From the NCBI RefSeq assembly GCF_003334255.1, contig NZ_QOWU01000062.1: DNA of 27,246 nt. One strand, written 5' to 3'. The position numbers were made by a program. This DNA is from Escherichia coli. GTDB lineage: Bacteria > Pseudomonadota > Gammaproteobacteria > Enterobacterales > Enterobacteriaceae. Below, one piece after another: positions 1 through 18,000 of this stretch (position 1 is the stretch's first letter; every line of letters begins with the position of its first letter).

Positions 1-3000
1 TACTGCTTCAGAAAGTTCAGCAAAATCCATCTGGTAAAGTTCCATCAGATAAGTCAGCACGATATTCTGGTGAACGCTGCTGCCATACTTATCCGTCAGT
101 GTGATTGATTTACCAATCAGCTCAATCACATCACCACTGGTGCCGGACTTCATCGTGAACATCAGCGCCGCCATCCGGTGATAGTGTTCAATTTCATCAT
201 CGGTAAGCGTGCTGACATCCACCAGGCTGAATGGCTTTTGCTCGCCATAAATCTCGCGTCCGTACACCGGGTCATCCAGACAATCCACCCAGTTCATCGG
301 ATACGGATATGGCCGCTTTGCACCATGATAAAACAGCACCGGGATCACTACTGGCGCACACTTATGCTCTTCAATATGCTGCTCCATCACCGCCAGAATA
401 TAACGCATCATGCGCAGTGGGATAAATTTATCCGGCGAACTCTGGTGTTCTATTAAAGTATAAATGTACCCGTCCTTCCCGTCATTTGTCTTCATGCTGA
501 GCAAAACATCGCAGGCAGACTGACGTAAACTTTCTGCCACAAACGTCGTGGATTCAAGTTCTATTGTATCAAGATTACAGCGGGATTTCTGATACGGTGT
601 CAATACCTGTTCAAGAAAGTCCCTCGCGGCTGCAGGGTCCTTCAGTGTCTTCCTGAACGCCGCATCATGTATCAGGCTGGTTTTATTAACTTTTTCACTC
701 ACGGAACCTCCGGATAAAAAAGTGGGGCATAACGCCCCATGGTTGATGTTACATGGCATGAATAATTCGTCGTTCCATGCCATACCCGAGCCCCATAAAG
801 GGAATATCATCGTCAAAGTCCATTGGTGGTGCACCATTACCCGTTGATGTTGTCTGGGGTGCACGACCAGCCTGTCCGGCCGTCTTCGGCGGCTGTCCCC
901 AGCCCCCTTGTGCAGGTGCAGAAGCACCATTACCGGCAGTGCCCTGCTGACGCAGTGAACCCAGCATCTGCATGACACCATTCACTCCCACAACAACCTC
1001 AGTTGAATAACGGTCCACACCGTTCTGCTGGTCAAACCACTTACGGGTTTTCAGCTGGCCTTCGATATAGACCTTAGAGCCCTTACGAAGATACTCTCCG
1101 GCGATTTCTGCCAGTTTTCCATAAATAACAATGCGGTGCCATTCGGTCACTTCCTTCATTTCACCGCTCTGTTTATCCTTCCAGGTATCACTGGTCGCCA
1201 GTGACAAATTCGCCACTGCACCACCACCGTTAGGAAAGTACCTGACCTCCGGCTCCTGTCCCAGATGCCCAAGCAGGATGACTTTGTTTACGCCACGTGA
1301 AGCCATACTCCCCCCTCATTGCCAGTCATAACGCTGTGTCCAGGTACCATTTTTCAGCGCCTGCTCAGCCTGATCATGTTTTTTGAAATACTCTTCAGAT
1401 TCACGGGACACCGGCCCCTCAGAACACTGAGTGCCAATATAATATCCACGCGTACTTTTGAGGATTTCCAGGGGTAATGTATAGCCAGCCGCAGCTGCAA
1501 GAATGCCGTTTTGACGGTTCATATGTGTTTCCTTAAAGTTTGCAAAAACGATAAGAAAACAGACCTCCCTGATGGTGGTCTGTTTTCATCATCAGGGAGG
1601 CTGAGGGAAATACGATCAGAAAGAGTTTTCTGCGTATTGACGTTTAGTTGTGCCATTTTGCGGTGGCAGGGACTCCGCTTTTTCAGCCTTATAGACCTGC
1701 TCCTGGCCTATTTTAATCCAGTCCACCTTGATCAGGCGGGCTTTCAGACTGACGCGCTGCTCACCGGCATGCTCTCCCTTGTTCAGGGTGAAGATATCGG
1801 TGGCCAGGTTGCTTAACGCAAAGCCAAGCAAAACCTTACGGTCCTCATCCACTGCTTTCTGGCAGCGAGAGATCAGGGTGGTTGCATCTTTACCAACAAC
1901 CGTAACATCAAAACGCGTATAGGACGGATTGTCCGTTGGTCCACTCAGTGCGTTAATCACGCAGCAAAGGAACGAGCCATTCTGATGGTTAACCTGACGC
2001 ACATTACTGAGGTACCCCAGACCTTTTACGGTCAGATTGAAGTATTCAGCTTTTGCAGAAGAAGTATTTGTTGCAGACATGATGTGTTCTCCATGGATAA
2101 AAAAAGATATGACGGAGAACACCACCGCCCCTGACGGGTGTGATAGTTCCCGTCGGGGGGCCGGAATCAGCTGTATTTCCGGCTGTCTGTGCAGTTAAAC
2201 ATACCTCGATCACCATAACTGTGGTGATATCCGTTCCCAGAGGTTAAACGGATGTACCGCCATAAAGGCATCCTCTTTCAGGCTACGAGGATATTGCAAT
2301 CACCCGAAGGCGCTTCTCTCAGATTGCTGAAACATTGGCTGGCAGTCACCCGAAGGCGCTCCTCTCAGACTGCTGGAACATTGGCTGGTCGCCGGAGCGA
2401 CATGTGATCACCCGAAGGCGTCCTTCTCAGATCACCAGGACATTGGTTGGCTGCAAGGCAGCGGTTTAGCATGCTCATTTTTAAAACACCTGAACACAAA
2501 GTCAAGAACAAAACGTCATTAAATAATTATCTCACCGAGATGTTCACTCTTTGAAATGAGCATAAAAAAGGCGCTGAATCTTCAGCGCCGTCATGGGGTT
2601 ACCAGCCCTTCGGTCATCTCACTTGTCTCCGGGGATCACTCCCGGCGCGGTTTTCACGGAGTTCATACGCCTTGCAACTCAACCGGACGCTGGCCGTTGC
2701 GGATCAGAAACAAAACAACGCCGTTGTTTAATCGCTGCTCTGTTTCCCACTGATCATGGGGGTATACATCAAAGCGTATGCACTTTAACAAATAAAAAAA
2801 AGGAAGTAATCATCATCCACGCTTTTTAATTTTTCTGCCGCCGCGTTTACTGTGTGACGTTTTCTGCTCTGAAATAACGCCTTTACACTCCGGGTAACGC
2901 TGGCAACTCCAGAACTCTCCGTTCTTACCTTTCAGCTTCCGCATTCTGCCCTGGCAAAGTGGGCATTCCGGCGTCACTGGTGCCGTAATCTGCAATTGCT

Positions 3001-15000: not shown

Positions 15001-18000
15001 ATTCGCACATCCGTTCCCGGTTACTGACGGTCATCACTGTCTCCGGGCGGGAACCGTCCTGAAAAACATGTCCGGTGCGTGGAGAACTGTATGAAACATA
15101 ACCACCGTGCACCGCAATGACCGGACGACCTGACGCCGGAAGCCCCACACGACACCCACTGGCAATCCGGGTCATCAGCAGGTTCAGTTCAGCCAGTAAT
15201 TCAGGGCGGGTTAAGACCGCCGGAACCGGAGAATATTTCACTGAGGAAGACATACTTTCACCTCCATATCTCTCAGCCCGCCAGGTGCGTCACTTCCCCG
15301 CAGAGAACCGGAAACCTGGCTATATGAAAAAAGGGAAAAGGGTGCCGGACGAACAGTTGTCGGGAATAAAATCCCGGTAACTGTCTGTACGTTTTCAGAC
15401 CGGTAAGTTTGGCGACCCTGGTCAGAAGGTACGGATAGCATCTTTATATTCATAACAAATTGAATTAAAAAGGAAAAAGATAAATACAAAGCATCAACAA
15501 CTGCCGTCCGGCATTGATAACAACCATGATGAGGATGGCAACATGGCAAAATATTATGAAAACTGGAAATTGTTCTCGCTTAACCTGAATCACTGACGAA
15601 TTCCTCCGTTTTCCAGCAACCCGTCAAACGCCGGTTTCCACTCAGGAAAGAGTTCACAGGTCAAGCTGTGCATCGTGACAAGCGCAGAATCACTGCGACG
15701 TGTGGATTCTTTTTCGAGACGATGAACGGGCTGACCAGCCGCATGTCCCTGCTTGTAAATATTCAGGTCGTAAATCTGTGTGGAAAGAAGGGAAACGGCA
15801 CCTTCAGGTAACTGTCTGCTGTAACGACCGGTCTGAATAATTCCGGCCAGCTCATCCAGCGTCTTCCTGGCCAGCGCGGTATAGTCCATGCAGTTAACCA
15901 GCGTGCGTACTTTAGGCAGGGGTATCCCAAGTTCACGGTAGGGCAGCAGGTTCTCCATGACGTTGACAGTACCGCGAATAAATTCACGAACATCGGGAAG
16001 AACCGGATTGACCATCCCGACAACCGACTCAGTCGCCGACAGCACTATCATCTCCAGCATGACGGAGCGCGCCCCCTGAGAATCAACGACAATGACATCG
16101 TAGTTATTCAGGAAAAGTGGATGTTGCAGAACATTCCGGAGGCGAAGACGCCCGTCCGGGGCATGAAGCATCGCTGTTTTTAACTGTTCATGAGGATCAT
16201 TGGAGACAATCAGATCAAGGCCATCGATAGCCGTGCGGGAAATGATATTATCGGGATGGCTGAGGTCAGCCGTACGCATAAGAAGCTCAAAAAGACCGGC
16301 TGGAGCTTCATATGTCAGCGGAAAGATATTACTGGCTGTGGGTTGAGCATGATCTCCGTCAATCAGCAGGGTACGTATACCTGCATCGGCCAGAAAACCA
16401 GCAAGATTTGCGGATTGTGTTGATTTACCTTCACCACCTTTTGTTGAAACAACGGGAAGTATTTTCATATCTGCGCCCCCATCGACTGTTTTTTTGCGAT
16501 CGGATGCACATGAAAGACTTCAACGACAACTTGACATACCCGTAACTATATGAATTTTATGACAATGGGATTGAAAATCCCCGTGTCCTTGGTTCGATTC
16601 CGAGTCCGGCACCACTAATTCTTAAGAACCCGCCCACAAGGCGGGTTTTTGCTTTTGGATCTGACAATAACCTTCACGAAAAAAATTAGCTTATAAAGTC
16701 TGGGGGAATTACTCTCGCCACGTTAACGAGAGTAATTTTATTGATATTAATCTCCTGATACTTTACCCCCGTCCAAACTCCAGCCGCTGCACATTCACCA
16801 TCCCAGGCTTCTCAGCAGCACTGACATCAATTTGTGTCACCCGCAGCGCATATTTTTCATCCAGTGCGTTTAACCATTTCAGCAGGTCATTAAACACCAC
16901 AGGTTCTATCCAGACCTGAATATTCTCCCCACGATCGGCTATCCGCCTGATGACCACCGAGTGCGCGGAAGCACTGTCACTGATGACCCGCGATACCTGC
17001 GCAGGCGTTGTTGTGGCAGATTTTCGCGCTGCAATAATATCCGGCGCGGCGTTCTTCAGTCGGGTGTTCATCGCCACCAGCTGCTGCAATATTGTCTCCT
17101 GTTGCTCAATCCGTTCGCTCAACGGCTGCCAGATGAGGACGTAATATCCGACGCTAAACAGGAACACCACCGCTGCCAGTAACATGCCCTTTTCACGCGG
17201 AGAACGCCCCGCCAGGTGTTGTGCCAGCCAGTGTTCGCCACGGCTTAACTGGCGTTCACGCCATTGCTGAAAATAGTGAATAAATTTATCGCGTAACATG
17301 TTATTTCCTCCGCAACGTTACGCCGCCGGAAACCGCATCACCCTCTTTCTGTAACGCGTCCTGTTGCACAACATAATCGGTTGCCAGTGCACTACGCAGT
17401 TTGTCGAAACTGGCAAAGTTCGCGGCCCGTAGCTGGAGGTGAAGTATCTGGCGTTTTTGATCAAAGGTAAAACCACGCATTTCGATGTCGGAAAGTGACG
17501 CTGATTTCAGGGTGCTGGCTATCGCTGACAACTCGGCGAGCAGCCGGGTATCGTCGGCCTGTGGGCGATATTTTTTCAGCGCCATCGTCACCTGAGAGCG
17601 TAAATTCACAATCCGCTTCTGCTCCGGGAACAACGTTAAGAACTGTTCCTCCGCCTGGGTGCGGCTTTGCGCCACCTGTTCGCTGACGCTCCATAACGTC
17701 ACGCCCCGCTCCACTGCCAGCGCAACCAGAATCAGCAATATCGGCAGAATCATCACCCGCCAGCGCGCCCACTGTTTTCGGTAGCTGACGCGAGGCTGCC
17801 ACGGCCCTGTCAGCAGGTTCCCTTCCGGTTCGCCATAAGTGGTAATGGCGGGCAGAGCTGTAACGGTCAGGCGTTCAGCGTCTGCGCCAGCCCATGCTGA
17901 TAGCTTTTCCGGTGCAATGCCGACTACGGTTAGCGAAAGCGGTAAATCCTGCTCATTGAGCTGGGCGCGGAACATGACCGGAGCCAGCGCCAGCCCGGCG

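Follow-up and report, generated by a model that had tools for sequence, protein, structure and literature searches.

Integrative and conjugative elements (ICEs) belonging to the PAPI-1/pKLC102/ICEclc/ICEHin1056 superfamily are documented at the tRNA-Phe genes pheV and pheU of Escherichia coli (PMC11537424, PMC13127887). ICEEc2 of E. coli BEN374 (Roche et al. 2010, J Bacteriol 192:5026) is described as a pKLC102/PAGI-2 (PAPI-like) ICE that integrates on the downstream side of a phe tRNA gene and has genes for a type IV pilus and for DNA mobility (as cited in PMC11537424, PMC6761156, PMC13127887). In ICEclc of Pseudomonas knackmussii, a large ParB-like protein with GxxR and ENxxR motifs, BisD, is accompanied by BisC, a partner of the DUF2857 family and an FlhC-like activator subunit (PMC7423338, PMC12409273); BisD forms foci on the site bisS, which stimulates its cytidine triphosphatase activity (PMC12409273). 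The papers describing PFGI-1 and ICEHin1056 named a repeat region of the backbone a putative origin of vegetative replication (oriV) on the basis of sequence features (PMC2647930, PMC2258188), and the ICEclc paper makes no mention of oriV, iterons or pKLC102. The stretch of DNA analysed here, called the window, comprises 27,246 nucleotides of E. coli contig NZ_QOWU01000062.1 (assembly GCF_003334255.1). With very little doubt, nt 1–16615 of the window are the parA-proximal end, with the maintenance and regulation module, of an ICE from the Enterobacterales SPI-7/ICEEc2-type branch of this superfamily, and the 3' end of the pheV tRNA gene is its integration site. The identification as an ICE is correct, ordinary and already known in kind; given the documented examples at pheV and pheU, the gene names supplied by the NCBI pipeline and the existence of near-identical public copies, it adds little. 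A side result, concerning a repeat array within the element, could be of use to specialists on ICEs, as it would connect the BisD clamp, which has been characterised recently, to the 'oriV' annotation present in the literature since at least 2007–2009 (PMC2258188, PMC2647930).

Families were assigned to the window proteins from NCBIfam matches above the curated cut-offs, together with Pfam, independently of the RefSeq names, and the proteins were mapped by tblastn onto 80 related loci of other species (one genome per species, scanned with an AcaB/PFL_4669 alignment). Five family-specific core proteins (TIGR03764, TIGR03761, STY4528, STY4534 and the island-type DnaB) exceed their cut-offs, and a tblastn search of plasmid records with the ParB-like query retrieved pKLC102 and ICEHin1056, to which the window proteins are 24–52% identical. 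An earlier note on this DNA had recognised a PAPI-1/ICEclc/SPI-7-like backbone in the gene order, and this is borne out, as the same order recurs in pKLC102, in ICEHin1056 and in the 80 loci of other species; what the note took for the conserved core of the family is the SPI-7-type variant of a core that is superfamily-wide. The Enterobacterales arrangement, common to the window and to the SPI-7-type loci of Erwinia, Mixta, Xenorhabdus, Klebsiella and Citrobacter, is parA–dnaB–ParB–(DUF2786)–DUF2857–ParE–STY4528–AcaB–topB–STY4534 (DUF3577)–ssb. Pasteurellaceae, Pseudomonas and Burkholderiales have the arrangement parA–(dnaB)–ParB–DUF2857–STY4528–AcaB–DUF3158–ssb–topB–STY4534. The window shows the marks of the SPI-7 type, namely a match to the dnaB_SPI-7_type model, the order AcaB–topB–DUF3577–ssb, a ParE-like gene, and a STAXI RNA motif before the DUF3577 gene, in the same spacer as in SPI-7-type ICEs. 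It does not show those of the ICEclc type: there is no DUF3158 match in the window, a DUF2786 gene lies between the ParB-like and DUF2857 genes, and topB precedes ssb; the presence of dnaB is a further difference from ICEclc. A repeat region directly upstream of the PFL_4669 gene, which is the 'putative oriV' trait of the superfamily, is present in the window.

SPI-7 of S. Typhi was compared through models alone. The NCBIfam models built on its genes (dnaB_SPI-7_type, STY4528_fam, STY4534_fam) are matched above cut-off, while the cargo differs, that of the window consisting of an Rpn-family gene, Ead/Ea22-like genes and an orphan gene of 300 aa. Element pKLC102 (MOBH, MPF_G) reads parA ... DUF2786 ... 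dnaB ... ParB–DUF2857–STY4528, then a gap holding a repeat array, then PFL_4669–DUF3158 ... ssb ... topA. The pKLC102/PAPI-1/PFGI-1 group, whose array units contain TGGTGCCAcTGGCACCA, differs from the window in its protein sequences (24–47% identity), its 57-bp repeats (15 copies), topA in place of topB, the carriage of DUF3158, and a tRNA-Lys rather than a tRNA-Phe target (PMC6761156). ICEHin1056 of Haemophilus influenzae, likewise MOBH/MPF_G, reads parA–dnaB–ParB–DUF2857–STY4528, an array of 36 bp (4.6 copies), PFL_4669–DUF3158–ssb ... topB–STY4534. Its proteins are 28–52% identical to those of the window, the order of ssb, topB and DUF3577 is permuted, DUF3158 is present, and there is no STAXI. 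ICEEc2 and the window element have the host species and the target tRNA in common, and a common family is supported by what the ICEEc2 descriptions contain. The DNA identity between the window element and its avian E. coli relatives is about 85%, so that the element may represent a lineage sister to ICEEc2 and not ICEEc2 as such.

The boundary of the island is formed by a distal attachment (att) repeat at nt 16567–16615 (plus strand), which reads GGGATTGAAAATCCCCGTGTCCTTGGTTCGATTCCGAGTCCGGCACCAC. It is 49 bp long, being made up of the 3' 48 nt of tRNA-Phe and one further base, and is one G shorter than canonical, which is why the exact tRNA-Phe end pattern had no match in the window. No complete tRNA gene was detected in the window by ARAGORN, so that of the tRNA-Phe site proposed earlier it is the 3' part, in the form of the att repeat, that is found here, and not a whole tRNA. 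When compared with complete E. coli genomes by megablast, the match to a copy of the element at pheU in E. coli 2015C-3121 (H1) stops at exactly nt 16614, and the match to island-free E. coli sets in at nt 16567, with the window 100% identical from there on; together these two limits fix the boundary. The empty site in the island-free E. coli EC2 has the order speC–yqgA–tRNA-Phe (pheV)–yghD–gspL..gspC–gspS2–pppA–sslE, and the island is therefore inserted at pheV, which confirms the E. coli-like pheV locus that had been suggested by the neighbouring gsp genes and the tRNA-Phe site. A single att copy occurs in the window, at the island end, and the integrase and tRNA-proximal repeat are seen in the relatives H1 and H12 (described below). 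For bookkeeping purposes the island limit is this 49-bp tRNA-Phe repeat.

The missing G, in the 3' acceptor strand (GTCCGG-CACCA), represents a chromosomal allele, the only pheV copy of EC2 being the same 75-nt allele (L099, nt 2473–2547). Because the island-free EC2 carries this allele as its sole copy at the locus, it follows that some E. coli lineages have a pheV gene whose acceptor stem is shortened and would, on ICE integration, be exchanged for a 3' end borne by the element.

A lack of conjugation genes in the remainder of the island, which the earlier note had named as a refutation, is not what relatives show. H1 is a 99.96% identical copy of exactly nt 1–16614. Past window position 1 it continues with pilL, the TIGR037xx ICE proteins (MPF_G), TraD, a conjugative ATPase and TraG; further on there is cargo (an iha pseudogene, restriction-modification and toxin-antitoxin genes) and a type IVb pilus with PilV, and at the far end are UvrD, a TraI-type nickase/helicase (relaxase) and an integrase beside tRNA-Phe (pheU). 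The TraD of the H1 element is encoded contiguously with this backbone in many assemblies. A second relative, H12, is 85% identical and lies at pheV in strain GPEC1035. It spans about 78 kb in the order tRNA-Phe–int–TraI–UvrD–pil–...–type IV secretion system (T4SS)–...–parA–att–yghD, and also has TraD, the TIGR037xx MPF_G set, the conjugative ATPase, TraG and the type IVb pilus. Both relatives are thus complete for MPF_G, TraI relaxase and integrase.

Two points weigh against regarding the window element as a functional ICE. Just 16.6 kb of it lie in the window, and its integrase, relaxase and T4SS are known from the relatives, not from this genome. H1 also displays decay, with the iha pseudogene, a frameshifted pilus gene and insertion sequence (IS) insertions, and mobility of the present copy is therefore not assured. 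That the stretch is part of a decayed genomic island, fixed at pheV and no longer self-transmissible, is doubtful. The single end visible in the window would fit such an island, as would the pseudogenes and IS elements in the cargo and pilus regions of H1 and the truncation of some related contexts by IS1 or IS21. Yet each of the 19 annotated genes of the stretch is an intact open reading frame (ORF) whose junctions are tight or overlapping, the att repeat is likewise intact, both H1 and H12 have a complete T4SS module, and ICEs of this kind from clinical E. coli isolates, at pheV or pheU, transfer experimentally and mobilise chromosomal DNA (PMC13127887).

In strain 2015C-3121 (NZ_CP027340.1, nt 1,682,000–1,822,000) the backbone at pheU stands in tandem with a second int–TraI–UvrD island, which carries the subtilase cytotoxin genes subAB. 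An assembly in the ENA reports a 93,456-bp 'Circular_plasmid_575' with the same adjacency of int (345 aa), att and parA, which is either a true circle or an artefact of the assembly graph.

The repeat array (nt 5675–5873) lies upstream of the AcaB-like gene and is built of 36-bp units, 5.3–5.5 in number. A 17-bp palindrome, TG(T/C)TGGCAnTGCCA(A/G)CA, is present in five units; the sixth, which is partial, is degenerate. These five sites compare with an expectation of 0, and the palindrome is found at no other place in the window, nor in the remainder of the H1 element. The number of 36-bp units varies: the window has three perfect palindromes, H12 has ten, and near-identical elements have at least seven. 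Arrays are found at the equivalent position in pKLC102 (57 bp, 15 copies), in ICEHin1056 (36 bp, 4.6 copies) and, with units of 36 or 40 bp, in many other loci. In ICEclc-type loci this same position holds CTATCCCCnGGGGATAG, the core of the BisD site bisS, and two such loci have the exact 23-bp sequence GAGCTATCCCCnGGGGATAGCTC twice, about 2 kb apart, as published for bisS. Both ICEclc and the window have palindromes of 8+1+8 architecture between an STY4528-type and an AcaB-type gene, with transcription leading from there into the element. The window differs in having a tandem array of five intact sites of a different sequence, as against the two single sites, 2 kb apart, of ICEclc. From gene order alone, ICEclc orf96323, orf95213 and inrR are candidate equivalents of STY4528, AcaB and DUF3158, respectively.

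The ParB-like protein of the window (541 aa, BisD-like; nt 10997–12622, minus strand) matches TIGR03764 (ICE_PFGI_1_parB) with 379 bits (cut-off 143.75). It has the motifs of a cytidine triphosphate (CTP) pocket (G93NTR96 and E135NEVR139, corresponding to GxxR and ENxxR), a helix-turn-helix (HTH) at residues 168–197 and a long C-terminal extension, and with its DUF2857 partner it displays the BisDC-type trait. An AlphaFold model of the N-terminal 300 residues (mean predicted local distance difference test score, pLDDT, 84.9) shows the HTH at 168–197, and the best folds retrieved with the model were Noc, KorB and ParB-CDP (probability 1.00). Searches of PDB sequences with the AcaB-like and ParB-like proteins, both as single sequences and as profiles, gave no match.

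Comparison with H2, the element of strain FDAARGOS_1300, which is 97–100% identical to the window outside divergent patches, is informative in this regard. The palindrome site of the window type is TGTTGGCAgTGCCAACA and that of the H2 type TGGTGGCAcTGCCACCA, a symmetric change from TGTTGGCA to TGGTGGCA. Between the two elements, 13 of the 20 differences in the ParB-like protein fall within residues 161–192, while STY4528 is 98% and the DUF2857 protein 100% identical. The ParB-like protein of H12 is only 84% identical overall, yet within residues 158–195 it has a single difference (A193T), is changed at 0 of the 13 positions that differ in H2, and goes with the same palindrome as the window. 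Two Rodentibacter loci give a similar picture: AcaB, STY4528, DUF2857 and TopB are 100% identical, the ParB-like proteins are 95% identical with a changed recognition helix, and the palindromes differ. Across locus pairs that are 75 to <100% identical outside the HTH, pairs with the same palindrome have 85.5% identity in the HTH and 87.4% in the rest of the domain, and those with different palindromes 71.0% and 81.8%. In view of this co-variation, the probable binder of the array palindromes is the ParB-like protein.

Two other proteins were considered for this role and rejected. AcaB was suggested by the joint exchange of AcaB and array relative to H2, and identical AcaB proteins go with different palindromes; STY4528 is 98–100% identical in pairs whose palindromes differ. 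Both are therefore excluded as specificity partners. Relative to an otherwise 97–100% identical element (L005), two separate patches have been exchanged in the window, one comprising AcaB and the array (AcaB 52% identical) and the other a 150-bp stretch encoding the ParB HTH (nt 12001–12150).

Taken across the superfamily, the 'putative oriV iterons' of pKLC102, PFGI-1, ICEHin1056, the SPI-7-type elements and the present array are probably multi-copy equivalents of bisS, that is, loading sites for a ParB-like CTP clamp whose specificity would have been re-tuned time and again by paired changes in the HTH and in both half-sites of the palindrome. Several considerations weigh against this. Binding of the array by the ParB-like protein is deduced from sequence comparison, and the relation between HTH and palindrome is not a simple code: locus L024 combines a different recognition helix with the same palindrome, and in L021 the helix is the same and the inner half-site differs. 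The statistics on palindrome and HTH pairs also ignore shared ancestry. It is because of the imperfect code and the shared ancestry that confidence in the loading-site interpretation is set no higher than moderate. If it is true, re-tuning of sites could prevent cross-activation between ICEs that are co-resident or in tandem at pheV and pheU. Natural specificity variants are available in the window and H2 types and in the Rodentibacter pairs.

An iteron-type oriV bound by the STY4528-family 'replication protein' is an unlikely explanation for the 36-bp array. Tandem direct repeats do adjoin genes of dnaB, ssb and topB type, the literature assigns an origin to this region in pKLC102, PFGI-1 and ICEHin1056 from sequence features, and the NCBIfam name of the STY4528 family refers to replication. 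The assignments were, however, made without a cited origin assay (PMC2647930, PMC2258188). STY4528 is 98–100% identical in both window/H2 and the locus pair L059/L058 despite their different palindromes, which argues against it as the specificity partner, and the palindromes have the architecture and the position of a site to which binding of the ParB-like BisD has been shown. A ParB-bound array could also lie next to, or double as, an origin. Still less probable is a role of the array as operator for the neighbouring AcaB-like regulator. The array is directly upstream of the AcaB-like gene, AcaB (52% identity) and array were exchanged together between the window and H2, and IncC plasmids have an AcaB that is a DNA-binding activator (PMC8373056). 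Against this, palindromes differ where AcaB is 100% identical (L059/L058), 99% identical (pKLC102/PA7) or 92–94% identical (several Xenorhabdus pairs), and L024 has the palindrome of the window at about 55% AcaB identity.

On the preferred interpretation, the array as a cluster of loading sites for the ParB-like protein, the working of the module may be pictured as follows. The element lies at the 3' end of tRNA-Phe, and the genes of the module run in one transcriptional direction, pointing into the element. By analogy with ICEclc, the ParB-like protein would be a CTP-dependent clamp homologous to BisD. It would load at the array's 17-bp palindromes, which lie upstream of the AcaB-like gene, and slide along the direction of transcription into the element. 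Palindrome binding and spreading of the BisDC kind are made plausible by the position of the sites, their 8+1+8 architecture and the co-variation of HTH and palindrome. Again as in ICEclc, the ParB-like protein and its DUF2857 (BisC-like) partner would form a master activator that switches on the transfer genes. The AcaB-like protein may add a feedback step: it is a full-length member of Pfam AcaB, and an FlhDC-like activator pair together with an AcaB-type protein would recall the AcaB–AcaCD positive feedback of IncC plasmids (PMC8373056), with the difference that the activator pair of the window is ParB-like plus DUF2857, not AcaC/AcaD. ParA, DnaB, TopB, SSB, STY4528 and DUF3577 would, on the models of ICEclc and IncC, serve the maintenance and replication of the excised circle.

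All long ORFs of nt 1–16614 are on the minus strand, according to both the ORF list and the RefSeq annotation of the H1 copy, and the gene order of the earlier note (parA, dnaB, ParB-like, DUF2786, topB, DUF3577, ssb) is real. So are the repeated ATGA start/stop overlaps it had seen, of which four were counted, along with one GTGA and three longer overlaps (11, 11 and 14 nt). The terminal gene of the island (nt 15590–16468) encodes a ParA/Soj-type ATPase (Pfam CbiA/AAA_31; ParA family according to PGAP) that is 42% identical to ParA of pKLC102 and 36% to that of ICEHin1056. It is followed, in the direction of transcription, by the SPI-7-type island replicative DNA helicase, dnaB-PI (nt 12612–14000; NF040583 dnaB_SPI-7_type, 682 bits, cut-off 655), and, after the ParB-like gene, by genes for a DUF2786 plus DUF7168 protein (nt 10276–11007; Pfam), DUF2786 being present also in pKLC102, for the DUF2857 protein (nt 9701–10279; Pfam DUF2857, 1e-65, with a weak FlhD match) and for a ParE-like protein (nt 9456–9704; Pfam ParE_like, 8e-18) found in most Enterobacterales loci. 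The STY4528-family gene (nt 5902–7188; NF040582, 400 bits, cut-off 130), previously termed 'Rep-like', encodes a putative replication protein, the NCBIfam name being 'pathogenicity island replication protein'. The PFL_4669/AcaB-family gene (nt 4848–5567) encodes a putative transcription regulator of 239 aa (TIGR03761 ICE_PFL4669, 241 bits, cut-off 110.7; Pfam AcaB PF08900, 4e-75, full length). Downstream of it are topB, for DNA topoisomerase III (nt 2813–4825; TIGR01056, 823 bits, cut-off 515.75), the STY4534-family/DUF3577 gene (nt 1616–2080; NF040584, 198 bits, cut-off 160; Pfam DUF3577, 2e-57), annotated in H1 as an ICE replication protein, a 68-aa ORF (nt 1316–1522), and ssb, for a single-stranded DNA-binding protein (nt 749–1306; TIGR00621, 172 bits, cut-off 53.95). 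The last gene, of the Rpn family (Transposase_31; nt 1–702; TIGR01784, 81 bits, cut-off 52.1), is represented by its first 234 codons, its 3' end lying past the window edge; in the H1 copy it is present in full length, with 307 aa.

The accessory content of the stretch is limited to Rpn, the Ead/Ea22–DUF7446 block and the orphan 300-aa gene, and the truly variable slots are nt 7451–9446 and 14001–15589. Of the cargo positions proposed in the earlier note, that of Rpn stands, as the gene occurs in 0 of the 80 loci of other species and is therefore accessory and lineage-specific. The other three have to be given up. The 239-aa gene, being present in all 80 related loci, is core, the repeat array is a conserved family feature with its positional equivalents across related loci, and for the 132-aa cassette there are two ORFs of that length, neither with a family match and both overlapping better-supported genes. 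One of them (nt 14197–14595, plus strand) overlaps the end of the 300-aa gene in antisense and is without a match anywhere; the other (nt 8189–8587, minus strand) lies out of frame inside an Ead/Ea22-like gene.

The first variable slot (nt 7451–9446, minus strand; Pfam and PHROG matches) is a phage-like accessory block that contains ORFs of 75 aa (nt 7451–7678) and 71 aa (nt 7675–7890), two Ead/Ea22-like genes (nt 8594–9202 and 7887–8597; Pfam Ead_Ea22) and a gene for a DUF7446 protein (nt 9189–9446; Pfam). It is unalignable or rearranged in H2 and H12 and absent from the loci of other species. Genes of this block are typical of the early regions of lambdoid prophages, and they include a phrog_5994 ORF. 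One Ead/Ea22-like protein has a weak match to a PHROG of RecBCD inhibitors (1.4e-7), and the other PHROG matches are without function. In a search for defence functions the accessory genes gave no PADLOC match below E = 1e-4; the 236-aa Ead/Ea22-like protein alone had three marginal coiled-coil matches (E 3e-4 to 4e-3).

The second slot holds the orphan gene of 300 aa (nt 14351–15253, minus strand), which is found in only 17 related clusters, all from Enterobacterales, and has no match in NCBIfam, Pfam, PADLOC or PHROGs. In H12 this slot is filled by other genes. The 300-aa gene is bracketed by a 210-bp direct repeat, copy A at nt 15308–15516 and copy B, 88% identical to it, at nt 14024–14233. 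The repeat is single-copy in the H12-type element and has two copies in H2; it was not found outside the E. coli lineage, and no convincing promoter or terminator was seen in it. The pair resembles the trace that insertion of a gene between parA and dnaB would leave. Identity between the window and H2 dips at nt 2101–2850 (the STAXI spacer), 4801–5900 (AcaB and array), 8100–9150 (the Ead/Ea22 block), 12001–12150 (150 bp of the ParB-like gene) and 15301–15600.

Outside the island, the att repeat is followed by the native pheV terminator hairpin (nt 16623–16651, plus strand), identical in sequence to that after pheV in EC2, and by the chromosomal flank (nt 16763–27246, minus strand), which has the genes yghD (gspM)–gspL-K-J-I-H-G-F-E-D-C of an SslE-secreting type II secretion system. 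Although no complete RefSeq E. coli genome matches all of nt 1–16700 at 100%, an artefact of assembly or sampling at the junction between island and gsp genes is scarcely credible, given a public draft contig (GCA_043676895.1) with the same parA–att–gspM junction (99.0% identity over 20.9 kb, gapless), the related ICEs that occupy the same place, and the exact coincidence of the break with the tRNA-Phe 3' repeat.

Two further sequence features were noted within the backbone. The 732-bp spacer between topB and the DUF3577 gene (nt 2081–2812) carries the STAXI RNA motif (nt 2251–2402, minus strand; Rfam RF01728, 134 bits, gathering threshold 40.5), an RNA that has been described previously (PMC2864571). 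The motif is made up of three hairpin units of 46 bp, located at nt 2296–2449. STAXI occupies the topB-to-DUF3577 slot in other Enterobacterales loci as well, and in loci of the Pseudomonas/Burkholderiales type the slot holds the radC RNA motif (RF01754), suggesting that the DUF3577 gene is preceded by a conserved structured element. Inside the STY4528-family gene are degenerate TCGG-N3-CCGA repeats (nt 6337–6491). Such palindromes occur 600–900 nt into this gene in 44 of 68 loci, at 1.27 per kb compared with 0.07 per kb elsewhere, an 18-fold difference. They correspond to the 'CTGAGTTCGGAATCCGAACTCAGT' repeats of PFGI-1 and to the candidate site bisS-3 of ICEclc, which is not bound by BisD.

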